A DNA stretch of 64,000 nt from Gammaproteobacteria bacterium. GTDB lineage: Bacteria > Pseudomonadota > Gammaproteobacteria > Arenicellales > JAANXG01. Below the pieces are notes generated by a model. That model made no database searches. It was given only the letters and a program-made list of their open reading frames with translations, and had not been told where the DNA came from. This document shows, one piece after another, positions 49,581-60,022 of this stretch; the first letter of the stretch is position 1; every line of letters begins with the position of its first letter. The translations under genes were made by a program, and so were the position numbers. The DNA is taken from positions 4,679-68,678 of the forward strand of contig JAHEIO010000007.1 of assembly GCA_024639325.1 (NCBI GenBank), read 5' to 3'.

Positions 49581-50018
49581 TCAAGACACGGTAACAACCT
49601 GGCAGGGGGCGCTGTGAGAGACCTTCTGCGACACACTGCCGAAGGCCAGACCCTTCAATGCTCCCAGGCCCCGGCTTCCCATGACGATCAATTCCGTGCC
49701 CGTTTCCCTTGCAACGGCAATGATGGTTTTCGCTGGATCACCGGTACGCACAAACGTATCGATGTTCTCGAAACCTCGCCCCCGCAGACGCTCCACCGCC
49801 CTGCCGATCAGTTCCGAAGCTATCAGCTGCTCGTATTGCCATGCCGGTGGACCTTCGATGTTTTCGACCCGGGCGTAGCGTTTCAATTCCTCGGGCAACT
49901 CTCCCCGGCCAACGACGTTGAGTAATAACATCTCATTGCCCTCGCCGGCGAGCCTGCACGCCAGGTCGATCGCCCTGAAGGCGTTATCCGAGCCGTCCAC
50001 GGGGACAAGAATTTTCAT
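49581..50018 (-). CDS. universal stress protein (single UspA domain)
   Basis: 145 aa with MKILVPVDGS ... LIVMGSRGLG ... GSVSQKVSHSAPCQVVTV. Confidence 0.9.
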   Translation of the reverse strand: MKILVPVDGSDNAFRAIDLACRLAGEGNEMLLLNVVGRGELPEELKRYARVENIEGPPAWQYEQLIASELIGRAVERLRGRGFENIDTFVRTGDPAKTIIAVARETGTELIVMGSRGLGALKGLAFGSVSQKVSHSAPCQVVTVS

Positions 50019-50020
50019 TC

Positions 50021-50473
50021 TTAACGTACGGCGACTTCGATTGACTTGGGTTTCACTTCCCGGGCTTTTGGTATCAACAGTGACAGCACACCGTCCCGGT
50101 AGGAAGCGTCTATACCCTCTACGTTGATTTCCGACGGCAGCGTGAAATAGCGCTCAAATCTGCCGGTAAATCGCTCCGTGCGGTGGCGTTTGCTGCCTTT
50201 CTCACCGGTTTCCTTTTCCTCGTGTTTTTCTCCCCGGATCCCCAGCACACCCTTATCGAAAGTAACGTCTATGTCTTCCTTCGCTACGCCGGGCAGATCC
50301 GCCTTGATCAGATAGCTGTTGTCGCTTTCTTCTATATCCACCGAGGGCGACCAGTCAGCGAGCGTCACGGCTCCCTCGTCCTCACTCCTGGCCAGCGCGC
50401 GCCCCGTGGCCTGATTGTAACGGTCGAGAAGGGCTTCCATTTCCCGGAACGGATTCCAGATATTCGTGTTCAT
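50021..50473 (-). CDS. Hsp20/alpha-crystallin small heat-shock protein
   Basis: 150 aa with an alpha-crystallin domain (WSPSVDIEESDNSYLIKADLPGV ... GVLSLLIPK). Confidence 0.92.
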   Translation of the reverse strand: MNTNIWNPFREMEALLDRYNQATGRALARSEDEGAVTLADWSPSVDIEESDNSYLIKADLPGVAKEDIDVTFDKGVLGIRGEKHEEKETGEKGSKRHRTERFTGRFERYFTLPSEINVEGIDASYRDGVLSLLIPKAREVKPKSIEVAVR

Positions 50474-50610: not shown

Positions 50611-51624
50611 TCAGGGATCGACCCGATCGAGGCCGACAAACGTGCCGCCGTTTCGCGTTGTGAGGATTCGCATGAGTGCGGCGAATCGAATACCCGTGGC
50701 GTCGAGGCCGTCCCCTCGCAGAAACTGGACCGGAAAGCCGACCGCGTGGATCCGGACCAGGCGGGATCCATCCTCGCCGGTGCGATTGTAGCGGTCCACG
50801 GTCTTGACCACCTGATCGATGGAGCCCGTAGAGAACTCGTCTCCGAGCACGTAGAGGCTGATCTTCTTGTCAGCCGAATAGAATGTCCTGATCGCGGTGG
50901 TAATCCCTTCTACGGGACTGCTGTTGCTGAATGGATTCCAGCTTGCCAACCGGCTCAGTATGGCCTTTCGCCGCGCCGGTGTATCGGGTATCCATCGGCC
51001 GGAGTACTGTGAGAACATGTATTGACCCATGTCGTTCATTACCTGGATTCCCTTCACCGAAGGATAGATGTCAAGGGTTTCCCTGACCTTGTCCTGCATC
51101 AACCGCCAGCTGAAGTTGAACATGCTGGCGGACGTGTCGATGATGAAAATAATGTACTCGCTATCAACCGGAATGCCGCCAATCGGCGCATCCACGGGTC
51201 TACGCCGGAAGTTGTCGCCCAGCAGCCGCCACATCTCTTCGGTAAGCGACTGCTGGGCTGATTCGAGCTGGCCGGCTATCCGGCGCTGGGTTTCCAGCCG
51301 CTGGGTTGCGTTTCGAAACTCTCCTTCGAGATCGGACAGCTGCTGAAGAAGACGTGCCAACTGCTGCTGCGATTCCGACAGCTGGGGTGTCTTGTTCTGG
51401 AGCTCGCGATTGAGCATACGGGTCTCACCGCGAATCTCGAAAAGCTGCTGCTGAAGATCGGCCACGACGCCGCTCAGGTCCGCCCTGACGCGCTCCAGCA
51501 CCCGGGGTTCACCGGTCTTGGATAACACCAGCACCAGAATGATGGCGCCGAATGCGGAGCAGACTACATCCAGAAAAGAGATGCTGAAGACCTGCGTGTC
51601 CCGCCGGCGGCGCCTCATGGCCAA
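50611..51624 (-). CDS. ExbD/TolR-like membrane anchor - coiled coil - vWA domain protein (paralogue 2)
   Basis: 337 aa. N-terminus MAMRRRRRDTQVFSISFLDVVCSAFGAIILVLVL has an Asp in the TM, as in ExbD (FIDVM). About 110 aa of heptad-rich Q/L/E sequence follows. vWA domain with MIDAS motif DTSAS (IIFIIDTSASM). 10-nt overlap with the upstream paralogue. Confidence 0.7.
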   Translation of the reverse strand: MAMRRRRRDTQVFSISFLDVVCSAFGAIILVLVLSKTGEPRVLERVRADLSGVVADLQQQLFEIRGETRMLNRELQNKTPQLSESQQQLARLLQQLSDLEGEFRNATQRLETQRRIAGQLESAQQSLTEEMWRLLGDNFRRRPVDAPIGGIPVDSEYIIFIIDTSASMFNFSWRLMQDKVRETLDIYPSVKGIQVMNDMGQYMFSQYSGRWIPDTPARRKAILSRLASWNPFSNSSPVEGITTAIRTFYSADKKISLYVLGDEFSTGSIDQVVKTVDRYNRTGEDGSRLVRIHAVGFPVQFLRGDGLDATGIRFAALMRILTTRNGGTFVGLDRVDP

Positions 51625-52718
51625 TCCTTCGAGGGGCTCATGAACGAGCCGCGGCTGCGCACGGCCAGTTTCCAGAACTCACTGGCTGCGAAGGGATCGC
51701 CTTCAATAGGAAAAAGGATGGAATTGACCGGCACGCCGCCGGGCAGCACCCTGACCGCCTGCTTGAAATGACTGAGACGCCGCTTTCCACTTACAGGGCC
51801 GCCGGTATTTCCCGACTGGCCGACCGTCGGTAAACCGTCGGTCAGCAGTATCACGTTGTCCGGCCTGGGCGTGAGACCCCTGATCCGCTCGAATGCCTTG
51901 TACAGGCTTGTTCCACCCCCGGGGACCAGCACGTTCAGTCTGGACATCACCTGGTTCAGGTTCGAAATCTGACTTGCCGCCATCCACTTTCCTTCACCCG
52001 CAAGAAATTTCGCTTCGACATCGAATGCGATGACCTGGAACTCACTGTCCACCGGCAGCTGACTCAACAGCCATTCCACCGTATGCACCGTACGCTGCCA
52101 TTTGCCGGCATTTCGGCGCGCATCGTCGGACATGTTGCGAAGCCTGATGATGTTGACGATGGTTTCGTCCATCATGCTGGCCGAGGCATCGACGAGAATC
52201 AGGATGCGCTTGCCGCCCACTTTCAACCCGGTCAGATACTGCCTGTCCCCTTCGCCGATGAACCGGCGGACGCTGCGGCCCTGTTTCTCGGCCTGCTCGC
52301 GCTCACTTGAAAGCTTTTGCTTTTCGGCATCGACCCGCTTCAGGTCGGATTGCAGTTGATTGATATGCTGTCTTTGCGCGGAGGTAATTTTTTGCAGCGC
52401 GGCAATTTCGATCTTGGTCTGTTCGACGTCCGACAACACCTCCCGGGTTCGGCCTTGGGCCACGATGTTCTGCTGATCGACTTCCTCCAGCGTGTTGCGG
52501 ATCTCGACGAGGTAATCCTCGCCGGTCCGCACCTCGGTTTCCAGCCTCATTACCTCGCCGCGCAGATCCTGTTGCACTTCCTTGCGCTGGGCGAGCGTAT
52601 CGGAGTTGATGATCATCACCAGCAGGATGACGGAACCAAAGCCGCAGAACATGACGTCCAGGAATGAGAGCCCGAAAACGCTGACCTCTCTGCGACGTTT
52701 CACCGCACTCCCCGGCAT
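51615..52718 (-). CDS. ExbD/TolR-like membrane anchor - coiled coil - vWA domain protein (paralogue 1)
   Basis: 367 aa. N-terminus KRRREVSVFGLSFLDVMFCGFGSVILLVMI, then a long coiled coil. vWA domain with MIDAS motif DASAS (ILILVDASASM) and LLTDGLPT. 25 nt downstream of the MotA/ExbB-like gene. Confidence 0.7.
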   Translation of the reverse strand: MPGSAVKRRREVSVFGLSFLDVMFCGFGSVILLVMIINSDTLAQRKEVQQDLRGEVMRLETEVRTGEDYLVEIRNTLEEVDQQNIVAQGRTREVLSDVEQTKIEIAALQKITSAQRQHINQLQSDLKRVDAEKQKLSSEREQAEKQGRSVRRFIGEGDRQYLTGLKVGGKRILILVDASASMMDETIVNIIRLRNMSDDARRNAGKWQRTVHTVEWLLSQLPVDSEFQVIAFDVEAKFLAGEGKWMAASQISNLNQVMSRLNVLVPGGGTSLYKAFERIRGLTPRPDNVILLTDGLPTVGQSGNTGGPVSGKRRLSHFKQAVRVLPGGVPVNSILFPIEGDPFAASEFWKLAVRSRGSFMSPSKDWP

Positions 52719-53585: not shown

Positions 53586-53849
53586 TTAAATATCCGCGGG
53601 AAATGCTATGACGCTGTCCGGTGAGATGGTCTCCCTGGGTATGAAACGTGCCGGCGGCCCGGATCCCTTGCCCCCACCCTCGGTGGAACCCGCCGCATCA
53701 GTCTCCGGCCGCGCATCGCCGGCGACCGCTTCCGGTTCTGCTTCCAGGGCCGGATCCTGGGGCCGTTCGGGGTCTTGGGCCGATGCGTGCATTCCGAAAA
53801 ACACCAGCGCCAGCAGCGGAAGCAGAAGCAGGCTTCTTTCAATCCGCAT
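53586..53849 (-). CDS. small secreted Pro/Glu/Ala-rich protein
   Basis: Start at the internal ATG (MRIERSLLLLPLLALVFFGMHASAQ) with an AGGA Shine-Dalgarno. Signal peptide, then a low-complexity acidic Pro-rich region, ending RFIPRETISPDSVIAFPADI. 11-nt overlap with the upstream gene. Confidence 0.5.
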   Translation of the reverse strand: MRIERSLLLLPLLALVFFGMHASAQDPERPQDPALEAEPEAVAGDARPETDAAGSTEGGGKGSGPPARFIPRETISPDSVIAFPADI

Positions 53850-56226
53850 ATCGGGCGATCCTAAATCCCAGGTCATTGCGCGGTTCCGCGGCATAGTCCC
53901 GGTAGCTCAACCGCAGCTCACTCAAGGTCGAGTCTTTCCAGCCGGCGCCGCGCACCACGTGGTGACGACCGGATTCCGGGCCCCTGGGGTCCACGGCCGC
54001 GGCGCTCGTCTCCATGGGATACACGGCATAGAAGTCATGGACCCACTCTGCCACATTTCCACCGAGATCGTACAACCCGGCCTCATTCGCGCTGTAGCTG
54101 CCGACAGGCGCCGCAACCGGATTCGCGTCGTCGTATGATGACAGGGTATAGGACAACAGAGAGGACGCGGATCGATCGGCAAAATTCTCGGATCTTGCCG
54201 CAGGGGGATAGGTCTCACCCCAGGCGTATTTTTTTGGTTTGGATCCGATGAACCTTGCCGCCCTCGCCCACTCCGCCTCGGTTGGCAATCGATAACCACT
54301 GGCAGGAGGCTGGATCAGCACCCATCTTTCTCCGTCTTTTCGATAAGCGGGCGGCAGACCGTCCTGAGCGCTGAGCCAGTTCAGGTAGGCCACGGCATCC
54401 TCCCAGCTGATATTGACTGCGGGCTGATCGTCCCGGTCCAGGCTCCGACCGTAGGCGGCGCCGGAAGAATGCTCCGGCCTGAAACGCCGGAACTCACCGT
54501 TGGTCACCTCCCGTGCGCTGAGATAGTAGGGTTTGGTCAATACCACGCGACGAAGATTTTCATTGGCGCGGTGTCCCTGTTCACGACGGGAGGAACCCAT
54601 GGTGAACTCGCCGGGCGTTACCAGCTTGAGCTCCTGGCCCTGGCCGGTACGATTCAAATCCGGCTTGGCGGCAACCGGAGACGGCGTCTTGCCCACGGGG
54701 TTCAGTTCCACTGACAGCTCCTTGCTCACTCCCGGACGCGGCGTCAACTCGATGCGTTTCGATTCATATCCGGGCTTGCTGAACTCGAGCGTGTGCCGCC
54801 TCGCAGTCAGTCGCAATCGCTGACTGGCAGGGCCCATGTCACGGCCGTCAACGGCAACGGTCGCATCGGCCGGATTGGACGTGATGAACACCACACCGTA
54901 CAAGGGGACCAGCTCCAGGGAAAGGGCATCGCTCTCCCCCGGCTCCATAGTAACGGTCCTTTTGACCGTCTCATATCCGGCGCTGGCCAATGCAATTTCA
55001 TGTTTTTCCCAGGGCGACAGCTTCAGATCCAGCGGAGTGCCGCCGTGGTAAACGCCATCAACGGTTACGGTCGCCGGCGGTTTCGTCAACAGCCTCAAAT
55101 TGGCCGGCACCGGCGTAAGCCGTACAACCGGCGCCGCCATGGCGATCCCCGCCTCCACCGTCAATTCAATCGATTCCGGTTGGTATTTTTCGAGCTCCAT
55201 ACCCACCTGGTGACGGCCGGAGAGTATGTCAACGGTTAGCGGGGTGACGCCCGCAATTTCATCACCGAGTATGACGGATGCTCCCTCGGGCTCGGAACGA
55301 AACGTGACCGGCGCCCAGTCAGGAGCCAGTTCGACGCGAAAGACCTGCTCCCTGTCCAGGCCCTCGACATTTATCTCCATTACGGAATCCTGGTAGCGTT
55401 GCTTCGACAGTACGAGACGGCGTGGACCCGCCGCTAGCTTTTTCTCGATCAACGGCGTTGGACCGAGAAATTCTTCGCCGACGCTGACGTCCGCGCCGTC
55501 CGGACGGGAATAGATGGATACCCGGCCCGGCAGTTTTGTCATCTCGAAAGGAAACTCCGTATACCCCCCCCGGACCACGGAGATGGATGCGTCCATCGAT
55601 TCAAAGCCCCGTTTTTCGGCCAGAATACGGTAGTCCCCAGGTAGTGCCAGATAGCGGTCCCGCAGCGGCAAGGGAGGGGGAAATCCCCGTATCTCCATGC
55701 GTTCGGGCTCGGGTGTTACGGAAACCGATATCGGTGTCGCAACGAACACGAAAAGCAGAACCATGACGAGCACGAGAAAAATACCCAGCAGCGCGGCCTT
55801 GAACAATCGCACGCGTCCCGACCGGATGCCGTGCCGCCGAGTCGCGTGGCTTTGAGCTGTTTGTTCATTGCCTGTTTCAGCACCGCTCGTTGTGCCGGAC
55901 TCCTTTTCCACGAATTCGAGCAGCTGACCCGAATAGTCCAGGGAATACTTGACATTACCCACCCCGAGTTCGTCACCGCGGCGTAATGGAGCAGCCTCGT
56001 CAATGGCCGTGTCGTTCAAGCGCAATTCGATCGCGGGCGTTGCCGGAACTATCCACGCGTGACCGTCACGGTTCTCGATATACGCGTACCGGTTGTTGCT
56101 CGGGTCATCCGGGATGGATACATCGGCACCGTGTCCCCCGATTCCGATCCGGTCCGACTCCCGGCACTTGAACGTTCGTCCGTCGGCGGTCTTAACGGTG
56201 ACGGTATTCAAACCCTTTCCCCGCAC
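53839..56226 (-). CDS. FHA-like - TM - 5x PEGA - FGE/SUMF1-like domain protein
   Basis: 795 aa, GTG start. Degenerate N-terminal FHA-like fold (IGIGGHGADVSIPDD ... LRRGDELGVGNVKYSL). One TM (AALLGIFLVLVMVLLFVFV). Five PEGA-type repeats (e.g. VTFRSEPEGASVILGDEIAGVTPL). C-terminal FGE-sulfatase-like domain (GYRLPTEAEWARAA, GNVAEWV, RGAGW, LGFRIA) containing no cysteine. Confidence 0.75.
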   Translation of the reverse strand: MRGKGLNTVTVKTADGRTFKCRESDRIGIGGHGADVSIPDDPSNNRYAYIENRDGHAWIVPATPAIELRLNDTAIDEAAPLRRGDELGVGNVKYSLDYSGQLLEFVEKESGTTSGAETGNEQTAQSHATRRHGIRSGRVRLFKAALLGIFLVLVMVLLFVFVATPISVSVTPEPERMEIRGFPPPLPLRDRYLALPGDYRILAEKRGFESMDASISVVRGGYTEFPFEMTKLPGRVSIYSRPDGADVSVGEEFLGPTPLIEKKLAAGPRRLVLSKQRYQDSVMEINVEGLDREQVFRVELAPDWAPVTFRSEPEGASVILGDEIAGVTPLTVDILSGRHQVGMELEKYQPESIELTVEAGIAMAAPVVRLTPVPANLRLLTKPPATVTVDGVYHGGTPLDLKLSPWEKHEIALASAGYETVKRTVTMEPGESDALSLELVPLYGVVFITSNPADATVAVDGRDMGPASQRLRLTARRHTLEFSKPGYESKRIELTPRPGVSKELSVELNPVGKTPSPVAAKPDLNRTGQGQELKLVTPGEFTMGSSRREQGHRANENLRRVVLTKPYYLSAREVTNGEFRRFRPEHSSGAAYGRSLDRDDQPAVNISWEDAVAYLNWLSAQDGLPPAYRKDGERWVLIQPPASGYRLPTEAEWARAARFIGSKPKKYAWGETYPPAARSENFADRSASSLLSYTLSSYDDANPVAAPVGSYSANEAGLYDLGGNVAEWVHDFYAVYPMETSAAAVDPRGPESGRHHVVRGAGWKDSTLSELRLSYRDYAAEPRNDLGFRIARYAD

Positions 56227-57689
56227 TTGACAACCAGAGACGGCGTTGCGGAGCCCAGGCGCACATTCAACTCAAAGCGCACGTCCCGGTAACCCGTTCT
56301 CGATCCCAGCACGACATACTTACCCGGCAACAAGGCCACCGTCTTTTGCTCGAATTTACCGAAACGTCCAATCCGGTTGATTGTCACATCCGTCAATCCA
56401 TCGGACACCAGCGCTACCGGTACCGGGGTTTCCGCAAGTGCTACCAGTTCGGCAAGCTGGTCGAGTTTTTGCTGCAGTCGCGGACCCTTGTCGAGGTTCG
56501 ATGCCCCGGCGTCCAACAGAGTTCGCGCATTTGCTCTCGGCTGTGACGAACGCAAGCGATCCGGATCCTGCAACCACGCGTTGAGCTGATCGTGGAGCTT
56601 CGCCAGCCGGCGGCCCTGCGCCAGCCCCTGTACCGCGAATTGTGCCTGGGGATCTATGGCGAGCACCGCGTCCAGTTCACGCGACGACTCGTGCCAGCGC
56701 TCGGCCTGTGCGAATTTCTCAGCCCGCGTTCTGTGTTCGCTTATCTTTTGTTGTTGAATCGCGAGCTTCAGCCGCCCGCGGGCGTCGGCCACCCCTGGCG
56801 CATCGACATGAATAGCCTCGGCCGCCGACAGCGCCCGGCCGGCCGCGTCAAACCGCCCGTTTTCCATGGCCGTTAGCGCCTCGGACATCAGCTTATTGAA
56901 ACGCCGGGATTCGATTTCTGCGCCGACCCGGTCCAGTTCAGAACGGGCCCCTGATGCCAGCGGGTCCAGGGCGACCGCCTGTTCCAGCAGGGCTTGCGCG
57001 GACGCCAGGTCGTTCTTTGCCTCCGCCTCCCGGGCCCGGTTCAACAGGCGGGAGAGCTGTTCGACATTCCCGGCACGGGCCGCGCCAGCACGGGCCTGCT
57101 CGTCAGCCGAATCGAGCGCTAGCGCAATCTGGAACTGGCGCCGGGCCGCATCCGCATCAAATCGTTCGAGTGCAATCTCTCCTTCGGTCAGCGCCTTTTG
57201 CAAGCGCTCCGGTGTGGACTCCTCCAGGGCCTCCAGCAGCCGGGTTGCTGCCTCGTATCCTGTTTTCGCCTGCTCGAAACTTTCGTTGGCGAAGGATGCA
57301 TCCGCCTCAGCCACGGCCTGGAGCGCGTTGTCGTACTCCCGCCCGCCCCAGATCGACACCTCCCGTGCCTCCATAACGGCTTGTCGTTTAAGGTACTGCT
57401 GCAACGCTTTTTCCGCTTCGCGCTTGTACCGGGCCCGACGGGTTTCCGATTCGGATGGTGGCGAGGCGTCAACCTGTCGCGCCCCTGCGTCATCGTCCTC
57501 TACCCGGGTCACTGGATCGACGTAGCCGGGTAAAATCCAGATCACCGCAACCACCAATACCAATAATGAAACGAGGGCAATGAGCAGAACCGTGCGAATG
57601 CCTGATCGTCGCGTCGATTTTTCTTTCCGTCGCACCGGCTGCTCGGAGATGCCTTTTTCCTCGCCGGGATCGTCGGGCACGTTATCCAT
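56208..57689 (-). CDS. single-pass membrane protein with periplasmic helical (TPR-like) repeats and a PEGA-like C-terminal domain
   Basis: Start set at the internal ATG (MDNVPDDPGEE) at 57689. TM IRTVLLIALVSLLVLVVAVIWIL. About 330 aa of Ala/Leu/Arg/Glu-rich repeats. C-terminus LLPGKYVVLGSRTGYRDVRFELNV resembles a PEGA strand pattern. Confidence 0.6.
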   Translation of the reverse strand: MDNVPDDPGEEKGISEQPVRRKEKSTRRSGIRTVLLIALVSLLVLVVAVIWILPGYVDPVTRVEDDDAGARQVDASPPSESETRRARYKREAEKALQQYLKRQAVMEAREVSIWGGREYDNALQAVAEADASFANESFEQAKTGYEAATRLLEALEESTPERLQKALTEGEIALERFDADAARRQFQIALALDSADEQARAGAARAGNVEQLSRLLNRAREAEAKNDLASAQALLEQAVALDPLASGARSELDRVGAEIESRRFNKLMSEALTAMENGRFDAAGRALSAAEAIHVDAPGVADARGRLKLAIQQQKISEHRTRAEKFAQAERWHESSRELDAVLAIDPQAQFAVQGLAQGRRLAKLHDQLNAWLQDPDRLRSSQPRANARTLLDAGASNLDKGPRLQQKLDQLAELVALAETPVPVALVSDGLTDVTINRIGRFGKFEQKTVALLPGKYVVLGSRTGYRDVRFELNVRLGSATPSLVVKCGERV

Positions 57690-57718
57690 GTCCACTTCCA
57701 CCAGCCGACCGGTTTTCC

Positions 57719-59020
57719 TCAGCTTATGCCGGAGTTGATTGCGGCATTGTCGCCCTGATTCGAGGGTGCGCCCTGTTCGTCTCCAGCCGGCGTGAAAATA
57801 TTCTCCGCAGGCGGCGTTTCGCCTTCCGTCTGGATAGTGGGAACGGGCAGCCCGGTCTCTGTTCGATATATCTCGCGGAGCAGTTCCCGCCACTTGATGA
57901 ATTGCTCTTCAGCCGAACCGGTCAACTCTGCGGTCTGCCCTTCGATATCCACCACCATCGGTGCGACTTCCGCCTGAAAGGATTCGCCCAGCTCCCGAAT
58001 CGCGTCTTTGTGTATTCTTTTCTGCGCCCCCAGATCTGCGCCGCCTTTGACCGATGCCGCACCCCCAATGACCATAACATCGCGCAGGGTATCGGTATTC
58101 GTATCTCCTCCGAGCACCTCCACCGCGATAGCGCCGATGATCAATGCGCTTCCCAGGAGGTAGCGCTGGGTGCTTTTACGCTTGACTTCCCTCAATGCGG
58201 CAGCTTCCTCAGAGTTCAGCCTGCGCCAATCGAAATAAGGAGACTCCATTTCGGCATAAAGGTTGTCGTAGTACCCGTTGATCACGTCTACCATCAAGTA
58301 CTCGCGCTCGCGAATCTCGAGCACGCGCGCCATCATCGGATCGTTTGTCGCGGGGAGCCTTTGAATCTGGTACGAACCATCCTCGACGTTCAGGTGTTCG
58401 CTGAATGCATCAGGCGCCAGCGACCTGGCGAAGCGCAGCCGTGCGACGCGCCGTATGTGCTCGATCTGTTCCTGAGCCAGCCCCGATTTTTCCCGGAACA
58501 GGTCGTTGGCGATGCGGTTATAGACATCCTGGAAAACCTCTTTCTCCCGGTTTTGACCATAAACGGACTGCGGCACACGTTTCTCGTATTTGCGGCTGAA
58601 CCACTTAGTGCCGCCCGCATCGTAGGCGTGGATCTGTAATACCAGTGACTCCCCGTCCGACCGGTCGATCTGTCCGGCAACGATGATTTCTGCGGCTTCG
58701 GACTGGCCGGGCAGGACCCTGACGGCACCCCAGTGCCCGGTTTGTTGAATGGTGTCGCGGAGGTGGATGGCAATGTAGCGCGATTCGGCGTTCCGAACCT
58801 CTTCGGATACGCCCTTCTCCCTGTCGTCGTCGCTGATAGGACCGGGGTCGAGAACGAATATGCCCACGTCCAGAAGCTCACGTTCCGGCACCTCCCTTTG
58901 GGCGTTGTTGATCAGGGTGTCGGGCACGTGCGGCGCCTCGGGCACCGTCTGGCACGACGTCACAGCGCCCGCCAGTAAAACGGCGAGCAAGGATGTCCGA
59001 GTTGTTTGCCGACGGTTCAT
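57719..59020 (-). CDS. lipoprotein with C-terminal glycine-zipper-like hydrophobic segments
   Basis: 433 aa with lipobox LLAGAVTSC. Later has LLGSALIIGAIAVEVLGG and VMVIGGAASVKGG segments. No family recognised. Confidence 0.6.
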   Translation of the reverse strand: MNRRQTTRTSLLAVLLAGAVTSCQTVPEAPHVPDTLINNAQREVPERELLDVGIFVLDPGPISDDDREKGVSEEVRNAESRYIAIHLRDTIQQTGHWGAVRVLPGQSEAAEIIVAGQIDRSDGESLVLQIHAYDAGGTKWFSRKYEKRVPQSVYGQNREKEVFQDVYNRIANDLFREKSGLAQEQIEHIRRVARLRFARSLAPDAFSEHLNVEDGSYQIQRLPATNDPMMARVLEIREREYLMVDVINGYYDNLYAEMESPYFDWRRLNSEEAAALREVKRKSTQRYLLGSALIIGAIAVEVLGGDTNTDTLRDVMVIGGAASVKGGADLGAQKRIHKDAIRELGESFQAEVAPMVVDIEGQTAELTGSAEEQFIKWRELLREIYRTETGLPVPTIQTEGETPPAENIFTPAGDEQGAPSNQGDNAAINSGIS

Positions 59021-59021
59021 C

Positions 59022-59903
59022 TCAATTCAGGTTTTTCGGCTGCGCCTTCTGCTTTTCTTTATAGCGGCGGTACTCTTCCCACAGTTTTTCCCGCAATACC
59101 GGGTCGGTTTCCTTTTCGGCCGCTTCGCGCAGCTGCCGAGCCACGATATCGTCGTCACCAGCAGAGGGGGGAGCATCGCGGGTCGCCGTCCGGGACCCAT
59201 CGGCTTCGCTCTGACGGCTGGCGCCATGGGCGCCGGTCTGCTGCTCGCCCGGTTCCGCCTGGGAGGCGACTTCTTCACCTTGCGGCTGCTCAGCCCCTTG
59301 TTGCGCCTGCCCCTGCCGGGATCCCTGCCGACCGCCAGGTTCGGCACCGCCATCCGCCGACGTCGCCCCCTCACCTTCACCGCCGGCGGTGCCGGAACCG
59401 CCGGATTCATCTGGAGAACCCGAGCGTTTACGCTGCAGTTCATCCATTTCCCGCAGCAGTAACTCGTCGAACTCCGACATGGATTTGCCTAACTGCCCCT
59501 CTAGGCTCGCAATGCGCTCCTCTTCCGTGCGTTCGCCGGGAAAGGACACCGGGCCCGCCGGCTTCAGTTCATCCGGGTTGCAACCCGGCTCCGGACTCGA
59601 ATCACCGATTTCCAGTTTCAGATCCAGCACGACCCTGCAATTTGCAGACACCAAACGCTTTAGCCGGCCGAGATATGCCAGGTAGTCCTTTGCTTCCGAC
59701 TCGCTTGCCCCACCCTGCGACGGCATGGATCTGAACTCGATGGACGCGGCGGACAATGCGTCCCGTGCCGCACCCAGACTGATCCTCGCCGACTGAAGTT
59801 CTGCATCCCCTGCTGATCTCGCCACGGGTTGTGACGCAATGGCGAGCACCAAAAATGCGGTGCGGATGCCCGCGACCGGCATCGATATGTCCTTACGCCG
59901 CAT
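59022..59903 (-). CDS. secreted protein with Gly/Glu/Gln/Ala-rich low-complexity centre and a charged helical C-terminus
   Basis: Start at the internal ATG (MRRKDISMPVAGIRTAFLVLAIAS), which gives a signal peptide. About 100 aa of low complexity (SGGSGTAGGEGEGATSADGG ... QGQAQQGAEQPQGEE). C-terminus DDDIVARQLREAAEKETDPVLREKLWEEYRRYK. 1 nt before the lipoprotein gene. Confidence 0.55.
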   Translation of the reverse strand: MRRKDISMPVAGIRTAFLVLAIASQPVARSAGDAELQSARISLGAARDALSAASIEFRSMPSQGGASESEAKDYLAYLGRLKRLVSANCRVVLDLKLEIGDSSPEPGCNPDELKPAGPVSFPGERTEEERIASLEGQLGKSMSEFDELLLREMDELQRKRSGSPDESGGSGTAGGEGEGATSADGGAEPGGRQGSRQGQAQQGAEQPQGEEVASQAEPGEQQTGAHGASRQSEADGSRTATRDAPPSAGDDDIVARQLREAAEKETDPVLREKLWEEYRRYKEKQKAQPKNLN

Positions 59904-60022
59904 TTTGAACAGATCCTGGCATATTGACCACAACTCCCGCCAAACCCGAGCCTTCGGCACCTATCCCGCTATGATGGTGTTTGCGCAAATTTCCATAGCT
60001 CCCCCGAACCGGCACGGGCTGC

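Follow-up and report, generated by a model that had tools for sequence, protein, structure and literature searches.

What could be the role of a single protein in which an FHA-like domain, one transmembrane helix, five PEGA-type repeats and a formylglycine-generating enzyme (FGE)-like domain follow one another? This question is raised by a gene carried on a 64,000-nucleotide stretch of contig JAHEIO010000007.1 (assembly GCA_024639325.1, positions 4,679 to 68,678 of the forward strand; hereafter the window), from a gammaproteobacterium of the order Arenicellales (lineage JAANXG01), where it stands fourth in a dense row of eight genes on the minus strand, whose overlaps or gaps range from a few to ~40 nucleotides. 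Its fixed membership in an operon with a TolQ/ExbB-like channel and two transmembrane vWA proteins leads us to propose that its product is probably a bitopic inner-membrane protein and, as such, one subunit of a conserved, proton-driven envelope machine, with a structural or docking role, rather than an enzyme or a stand-alone phospho-receptor.

A PEGA–FGE Gene Syntenic with a TolQ-like/vWA Motor Module

With one genome scanned for each species, more than 587 relatives of the PEGA–FGE gene came to light, and synteny was counted in the best 79 of their loci together with two contigs found by exact protein look-up. Genes for a MotA-like protein and for both vWA proteins stand directly downstream in 54 of the 65 loci with enough downstream DNA, and are found nearby in most of the others, while the tetratricopeptide repeat (TPR) and lipoprotein genes lie upstream in 58 of the 61 loci with enough upstream DNA. 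The reverse search, seeded with the second vWA protein (vWA2), recovered a PEGA–FGE gene in every one of the 28 metagenome loci whose upstream sequence extended over 6.5 kb or more (28 of 28), these being fairly close relatives (53–62% identity). The PEGA–FGE gene is thus strictly syntenic with the motor genes, across loci that span many gammaproteobacterial orders as well as Desulfobacterales, Thermoanaerobaculales, Rhodospirillaceae, Nitrosomonadaceae, and Opitutales, with Microbulbifer, Spectribacter, and Sneathiella as cultured carriers. The operon is also borne by a 10-kb contig in an assembly of Nostoc favosum (locus L046, ~39% identity to the query), which is suggestive of contamination or horizontal transfer rather than of a cyanobacterial lineage of the system.

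Proton-driven 5:2 motors (MotAB, ExbBD, TolQR, GldLM, and ZorAB) drive very different envelope processes. The channel protein of this operon retains the TolQ-type motif P-x-I-G-x-x-G-T-V-x-G-I, and no gene for TolR, ExbD, or MotB is found in the operon. The two vWA paralogues carry the same motif at their N-terminus (R/K-rich ... [SA]F[LI]D..xCG[FL]GA), and the Asp of their transmembrane helix is invariant in both paralogue families (~120 sequences from ~60 loci). Genes for transmembrane-tethered vWA proteins, forming heterologous pairs that tightly co-occur with tolQ homologues in clusters devoid of tolR/exbD, have recently been described, chiefly among Proteobacteria and Verrucomicrobia (Origin and Evolution of Bacterial Periplasmic Force Transducers, Mol Biol Evol 2025; PMC12204202). 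In that work, AlphaFold 3 (AF3) models predict a TolR-like “transpore helix” (TPH), whose conserved Asp lies within the Thr ring of the pentamer, and the arrangement of a TolQ-like protein with paired TPH-vWA proteins is predicted to be a 5:2 motor. The downstream half of the operon in the window corresponds to such a cluster, with a tolQ-like gene, no tolR/exbD, and then a heterologous transmembrane vWA pair bearing the transmembrane Asp. The PEGA–FGE protein, the lipoprotein, and the transmembrane TPR protein, which are constant partners here, fall outside the published model, and the terms PEGA, FGE, FHA, and Hsp70 have 0 occurrences in its text.

Architecture of the PEGA–FGE Protein

An earlier note, made from the sequence alone, had read in the window a single open reading frame (ORF) of 795 amino acids (aa), composed of an N-terminus with the strand pattern of an FHA domain in which the phosphothreonine-binding Arg/Ser/His were not to be found, one transmembrane helix, five PEGA repeats, and a Cys-free FGE-like domain. 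This description holds up in every part, and the domain order is recovered when Pfam, a family profile, AlphaFold2 (AF2), and Foldseek are taken together. The length of 795 aa supposes a start at the GTG at 56226. However, the most likely start is the TTG at 56211, which gives 790 aa, since this codon overlaps the upstream stop (the two share TTGA, within 56208–56226), is preceded by the stretch GGGGAAAGGG, and agrees with the 790 aa at which close relatives are called.

The full-length AF2 model (predicted local distance difference test [pLDDT] 90.3) lays out an FHA domain (aa 8–108), a disordered linker (aa 111–146), a transmembrane helix (aa 146–162), five beta-sandwiches, and an FGE fold (aa 524–795). 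An Arg/Lys-rich stretch closes the linker directly before the helix, and by the positive-inside rule this crowding would place the FHA domain in the cytoplasm and the PEGA and FGE parts in the periplasm, the N-terminus being predicted to lie inside the cell. The only Cys of the protein (C21) belongs to the FHA domain, so that the periplasmic part has none. Among distant orthologues, identity to the query is lowest in the FHA domain (20%), the least conserved of the folded domains, reaches 32–43% in the PEGA modules, and is highest in the FGE-like head (52%), the best conserved one. Members of the family are currently named “PEGA domain-containing protein,” “formylglycine-generating enzyme,” or “nonheme iron enzyme” in databases.

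With regard to the stalk, Pfam PEGA (PF08308) matches the protein in four stretches at 151 bits (cut-off 20.8; E = 7e-45). The AF2 model displays five beta-sandwich modules (aa 164–228, 234–299, 304–370, 375–438, and 443–507), and in an alignment of the repeats all five keep to the register of the PEGA pattern. Pfam by itself therefore backs four repeats, and the first module is the fifth repeat, on the strength of the AF2 model and of the repeat alignment. The length of the periplasmic part is constant among orthologues.

An FGE-Fold Head without the Copper-Binding Cysteines

The head has the fold of SUMF1 and other FGEs, with which it shares 23–27% identity, at TM-scores of ~0.68–0.70, and the motifs RLPTEAEWE and GNVxEW. 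Pfam FGE-sulfatase (PF03781) matches aa 535–792 at 153.7 bits (cut-off 23.3; E = 9e-45), over profile positions 7–255 of 255, and Foldseek retrieves TvpA (TM-score 0.75), PvdO (TM-score 0.74), and FGEs (TM-scores 0.64–0.71), as well as CarF, pFGE, and PorK. The alignment with the Streptomyces coelicolor FGE sets its segment LRGGSYLCHDSYCNRYR against VRGAGW--KDSTLSELR of the head and, within it, LCHDSYCNRYR against W--KDSTLSELR, so that the positions of the Cu-binding Cys pair are occupied by a gap/K and by L. When 93 full-length homologues are aligned, Cys occurs in these Cu-binding columns in 0 of 93 sequences. A single Cys is present in 71 of the 93, in an AxxYCNWLS helix, at a site where the query has Leu. 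Within the FGE motif NVWEW, the head moreover has Ala in place of the Trp. With the Cu-binding pair gone from the query and its 93 homologues alike, the head, judged on its residues, cannot be a catalytic formylglycine-generating enzyme.

Membership in other subfamilies of the fold was considered in turn. The scores against NCBIfam equivalog models are far below their cut-offs for PvdO (NF051459; 60.3 bits vs. 500), EgtB (42 vs. 360), SenA (45 vs. 420), and OvoA (17 vs. 400). The EgtB/OvoA/SenA sulfoxide synthases were rejected on these scores and on the missing DinB-like domain, as the region ahead of the FGE fold is a PEGA beta-sandwich in the AF2 model. PvdO itself, a single-domain soluble protein from the pyoverdine locus, was rejected on its score and because no pyoverdine genes lie in the neighborhood. 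The top NCBIfam match is GldK (TIGR03525; E = 9.5e-31), which covers the C-terminal part only and scores 107.5 bits where the cut-off is 350. PorK/GldK membership was likewise rejected, owing to this score, to the presence of an FHA domain and a transmembrane helix instead of a lipobox, and to the lack of PorL/M/N-like neighbors, none of these families being found among the neighboring products with Pfam and NCBIfam. Finally, a variable protein of a diversity-generating retroelement (DGR), of the TvpA/Mtd type, was rejected in view of the invariance of R772, G787, and R789 at the C-terminus and of the conservation of the head. The comparison with FGEs, which the earlier note had proposed as a check, and that with the EgtB/PvdO models hence assign the head to no active subfamily.

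Could the head nevertheless be an enzyme whose active site is of a new kind, such as a periplasmic oxidoreductase or a peptide/glycan modifier, as is presumed of PvdO, that acts on an operon-encoded or envelope substrate while the PEGA stalk merely positions it? We deem this unlikely, even though PvdO, the structural match on which such a reading can best draw, is also periplasmic and does without the FGE Cys pair, yet is required for a redox step. The head is also the most conserved domain, and it contains invariant polar residues (E556, H586, N681, Y698, D700, D731, and Y733). Set against this are the equivalog scores and the missing DinB domain reported above, the absence of pyoverdine or thiohistidine genes nearby, the 87-aa secreted protein encoded next to the PEGA–FGE gene, which has neither Cys nor a CxPxR motif, and the existence of several FGE-fold proteins that are non-catalytic in envelope or binding roles. 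Given the absent Cys pair, the absent DinB domain, and the low equivalog scores, a binding or structural role is the better reading of the head, in line with the preference of the earlier note for a ligand-binding module over an enzyme.

A Degenerate and Optional FHA Domain

When the N-terminal 232 aa were searched as a single sequence with Pfam FHA (PF00498; E ≤ 10), no match was obtained, whereas a profile built from 48 homologues over the first 112 aa matched solved FHA domains, that of Ki-67 first (5.5e-5) and more weakly those of EssC, Rv1747, GarA, and EmbR. The AF2 model of aa 1–112 (pLDDT 88.9) has only FHA domains among its top 50 Foldseek matches in the PDB. Going by this profile and this model, an FHA beta-sandwich fold is present at the N-terminus. 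The column of the canonical FHA Arg is occupied by G31 in the query, by Gly in 73 of the 93 homologues, and by Arg in 2 of the 93; the Ser column is unconserved (mostly G/D/A/N), as is the His column (E/Y/V/A). The query retains N71, the Asn of the “NG” signature, and the G84-D85 pair. The alignment shows in this way that the residues that would bind phosphothreonine have been lost family-wide. Orthologues further fall into two length classes (~670–730 aa and ~780–820 aa) that differ by the FHA domain, many of them, those of the shorter class, lacking it, which makes this domain an accessory, optional module as far as the sequences of the family tell.

A second FHA domain is frequently encoded in the vicinity. 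In most loci (L024 and ~45 others), an extra cytoplasmic gene of ~430 aa is inserted between the MotA-like gene and that of the first vWA protein (vWA1), for example at L024:13088-14392 (+), at L023:13224-14588, and in L048, L052, and L034; in the window, no such gene was found. Its family profile yields weak matches to Hsp70 nucleotide-binding domains (E = 0.0075–0.014), and its product ends in a clear C-terminal FHA domain (profile match to EmbR, E = 1.1e-7), which is recognized by Pfam FHA in 12 of 37 family members (best E = 2.4e-13) and is also matched by Yop-YscD_cpl. The FHA domain of the PEGA–FGE protein aligns with this second one at an hhalign probability of 96%. The full GR...SRxH...GT.NG signature is present in only a minority of these partner FHA domains, the rest being degenerate. 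All four combinations occur, that is, FHA fused to the PEGA–FGE protein or not, with the extra gene present or not.

These observations bear on the idea that the protein is a stand-alone transmembrane receptor, whose PEGA/FGE array would bind a ligand and whose FHA domain would couple this binding to cytoplasmic Ser/Thr phosphorylation. The FHA fold is real, most related operons encode a separate cytoplasmic protein with a second FHA domain, canonical in a minority of lineages, and FGE-sulfatase domains are known from PDB names as extracellular modules of bacterial Ser/Thr kinases. We nonetheless hold such a receptor to be rather improbable, considering that the phosphothreonine-binding residues are gone across the family, that the domain is dispensable in many orthologues, that Pfam finds no kinase or phosphatase among the operon products, that a regular expression for the Hanks-kinase catalytic loop has no hit in the six frames of the window, and that the gene stands in obligate synteny with those of the motor and the envelope rather than with regulators. 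For the same reasons, the proposal of the earlier note that the architecture links a possible cytoplasmic signaling input to a periplasmic binding array found no support.

In this regard, the layout of a cytoplasmic FHA domain followed by a transmembrane helix and by periplasmic or extracytoplasmic modules is reminiscent of YscD/PrgH of type III, EssC/YukB of type VII, and TagH of type VI secretion systems, and the FHA domains of EssC and YukB are indeed among the sequence and fold matches of the one studied here. These scaffolds differ in that their extracytoplasmic domains are unrelated and that no secretion ATPase or channel genes are encoded near the PEGA–FGE gene. Several FHA domains of YscD/EssC-type scaffolds function independently of phosphothreonine. 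The degenerate FHA domain may similarly serve as an optional cytoplasmic protein–protein adaptor rather than as a phospho-reader.

A Putative Structural Subunit of an Envelope Machine

How could such a subunit operate? The engine of the machine would be the TolQ/ExbB-like proton channel, with the two paralogous transmembrane, coiled-coil, vWA proteins in the place of TolR/ExbD. The five PEGA modules would form a stalk of fixed length placing the FGE-like head in the outer periplasm, where the head may act as a non-catalytic docking or ligand-binding module, with the operon lipoprotein, the TPR protein, the vWA heads, and cell-wall glycan as candidate partners. As the head is conserved and the number of PEGA modules does not vary, it may be that the partner is endogenous, itself conserved, and met at a set height within the envelope.

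The closest functional analogy, by likeness and not by membership, may be found in PorK, GldK, and GldJ of the machinery for type IX secretion (T9SS) and of gliding motility, in which an FGE fold without both catalytic Cys is encoded beside a 5:2 motor, PorLM/GldLM. PorK is a non-catalytic FGE fold and works as a hub for structural docking alongside the PorLM motor (PMC12421860), and it is retrieved with the head in both sequence and fold searches. However, PorK/GldK are outer-membrane lipoproteins of Bacteroidota, with large insertions and forming rings with PorN, whereas the present family, found in Pseudomonadota and other groups, has an inner-membrane anchor and a PEGA stalk that points outward. 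The FGE fold is also used purely for binding in Tsi3, a type VI secretion immunity protein, and in TvpA, a DGR variable protein that is a strong structural match; the PEGA–FGE protein differs from both in that its C-terminus is not hypervariable and that its operon showed neither effector nor vgrG genes.

Several points weigh against the subunit reading. In the chromosomes of Candidatus Foliamicus (L012 and L025), the secreted-protein, lipoprotein, TPR, and PEGA–FGE genes are kept, yet no MotA-like or vWA gene is found within 10 kb downstream, and the operon may be split in these genomes. A profile of the 42-residue transmembrane region of the vWA proteins retrieved no ExbD or TolR chain from the PDB; the strong conservation of the head suits an enzyme equally well, and its invariant polar residues, instead of lining a binding surface, could make up a site for catalysis or for a metal. 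Docking of the head onto operon products is something that we infer by analogy, and the partners named above are only candidates. Pfam, ExbD included, also gave nothing on the vWA N-termini. Since no sequence match to ExbD/TolR was obtained, we keep the replacement of TolR by the vWA pair at the level of a motif, of gene content, and of the AF3 models published for similar clusters (PMC12204202).

As a more daring extension of the subunit reading, which we regard as doubtful, the system could correspond, in Proteobacteria, to the T9SS/gliding “cogwheel,” in that the heads, kept at a constant height by the five-PEGA stalk, would oligomerize or dock with the outer-membrane lipoprotein and thereby build a periplasmic track or ring engaged by the rotating TolQ-like/vWA motor.

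Very improbable, lastly, is a conflict or anti-phage system of the Zorya-like or Aravind-type FGS/vWA kind with a lectin-like head sensing the invader, for although the MotA-like protein weakly matches ZorA (E = 0.0017, PADLOC) and FGS, vWA, and PEGA domains are found in predicted conflict systems (PMC7159879), PADLOC run on all operon proteins otherwise gave coiled-coil noise and no defense system, no NTPase, MoxR, effector, or reverse transcriptase was seen in the operon (no search being aimed at reverse transcriptase), the operon is syntenic across phyla beside housekeeping genes, and the head, down to its C-terminus, is highly conserved rather than hypervariable, which speaks against the conflict-system and DGR readings alike.

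The Operon and Its Surroundings

The features of the PEGA–FGE protein and the seven other genes of the operon are listed in table 1. Neighboring genes overlap by 4–19 nucleotides along the operon, the ATG of the 87-aa secreted protein lying 11 nucleotides inside the 3′ end of the PEGA–FGE gene (53839–53849), and these overlaps suggest that the genes may be translationally coupled. No paralogue of the PEGA–FGE protein was found elsewhere in the window.

Table 1. Position of the PEGA–FGE gene, of its domains, and of the other operon genes in the window.
Feature	Position	Strand	Basis
PEGA–FGE gene: FHA-like / transmembrane / 5 × PEGA / FGE-like	53839..56226	-	ORF call, Pfam, AF2
Degenerate FHA domain, predicted cytoplasmic, aa 8–108	55903..56205	-	Profile, AF2, Foldseek, alignment
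Disordered, poorly conserved linker, aa 111–145	55792..55896	-	AF2, domain identity, sequence
Lone transmembrane helix, aa 146–163, hydrophobic stretch AALLGIFLVLVMVLLFVFVA	55738..55791	-	AF2, sequence
Five PEGA-type beta-sandwich modules, aa 164–512, predicted periplasmic stalk	54691..55737	-	Pfam, AF2, repeat alignment
FGE/SUMF1-fold (C-type-lectin-like) head, aa 524–795, no Cys	53842..54657	-	Pfam, Foldseek, alignments
Secreted acidic low-complexity protein, first operon gene, start uncertain, conserved C-terminal helix motif	59022..59960	-	ORF, synteny
Conserved lipoprotein, 433 aa, lipobox ...VTSC	57719..59020	-	ORF, synteny, profile searches
Transmembrane protein with TPR array ending in a PEGA-like module; start uncertain (~57695); stop overlaps the probable start of the PEGA–FGE gene	56208..57695	-	ORF, repeat alignment
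Small secreted protein, 87 aa, signal peptide, poorly conserved	53586..53849	-	ORF, synteny
MotA/TolQ/ExbB-family proton channel protein, 266 aa	52744..53544	-	Pfam E 1e-15, motif
vWA protein 1: Arg-rich N-terminus, transmembrane helix with invariant Asp (SFLD), coiled coil, periplasmic vWA, DxSxS	51615..52718	-	Pfam, family alignment
vWA protein 2, paralogue of same layout; D19 (transmembrane) and metal ion-dependent adhesion site D163/S165/S167 invariant	50611..51624	-	Pfam, family alignment

As for the upstream genes, the product of the first one combines a signal peptide, a long acidic/Ser-rich low-complexity region of variable length (compare L024:5489-6664), and a conserved C-terminal motif, DDD[IV]VARQ[LI]REAA..E.DP.LREKLWEEYR.YK, with only a weak match to DUF6381. 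The lipoprotein contains a Gly-rich hydrophobic segment at residues ~290–330 (consensus G.AAI.GGI.A...G...I.GGA..IKSG), and its family profile had no meaningful homologue in the PDB or Pfam. In the transmembrane TPR protein, the last ~72 residues (window ~56211–56426, minus strand) align with the PEGA pattern as a sixth PEGA-like module, and orthologues of this protein give weak matches to PEGA/CarboxypepD_reg.

On the other side, Hsp20 and universal-stress-protein genes (49581–50473, minus strand) directly follow vWA2, as they do in the 96%-identical locus L082 and unlike in more distant loci. Genes with a TonB C-terminal domain adjoin the operon in some genomes (L024:3993-5291 [+], whose product also has TPRs, and L001:18115-18411 [−]); none was seen beside the operon of the window.

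Implications

The component domain families are already known, and the motor module was predicted in 2025. The literature searched returned no description of the constant partnership of a PEGA–FGE protein with a TolQ-like/vWA motor, of the family-wide loss of functional residues from both the FGE and the FHA domains, or of the modular relation to the Hsp70-like/FHA partner. For the annotation of the family, the present analysis corrects the names that attribute to its members a formylglycine-generating or a nonheme iron enzyme activity.

From a broader perspective, the PEGA stalk with its FGE-like head, the lipoprotein, and the transmembrane TPR protein emerge as constant companions of the motor and thereby provide a parts list for an uncharacterized machine, which is widespread in marine and sediment Gammaproteobacteria as well as in several other phyla, and for which culturable hosts such as Microbulbifer, Spectribacter, and Sneathiella make genetics feasible. 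Next to the T9SS/gliding proteins, this family would represent a second, independent case of an FGE fold recruited beside a 5:2 motor. If the comparison with the cogwheel were to hold true, these bacteria would possess a new class of proton-driven trans-envelope machine, with the PEGA–FGE protein as its stator or track.

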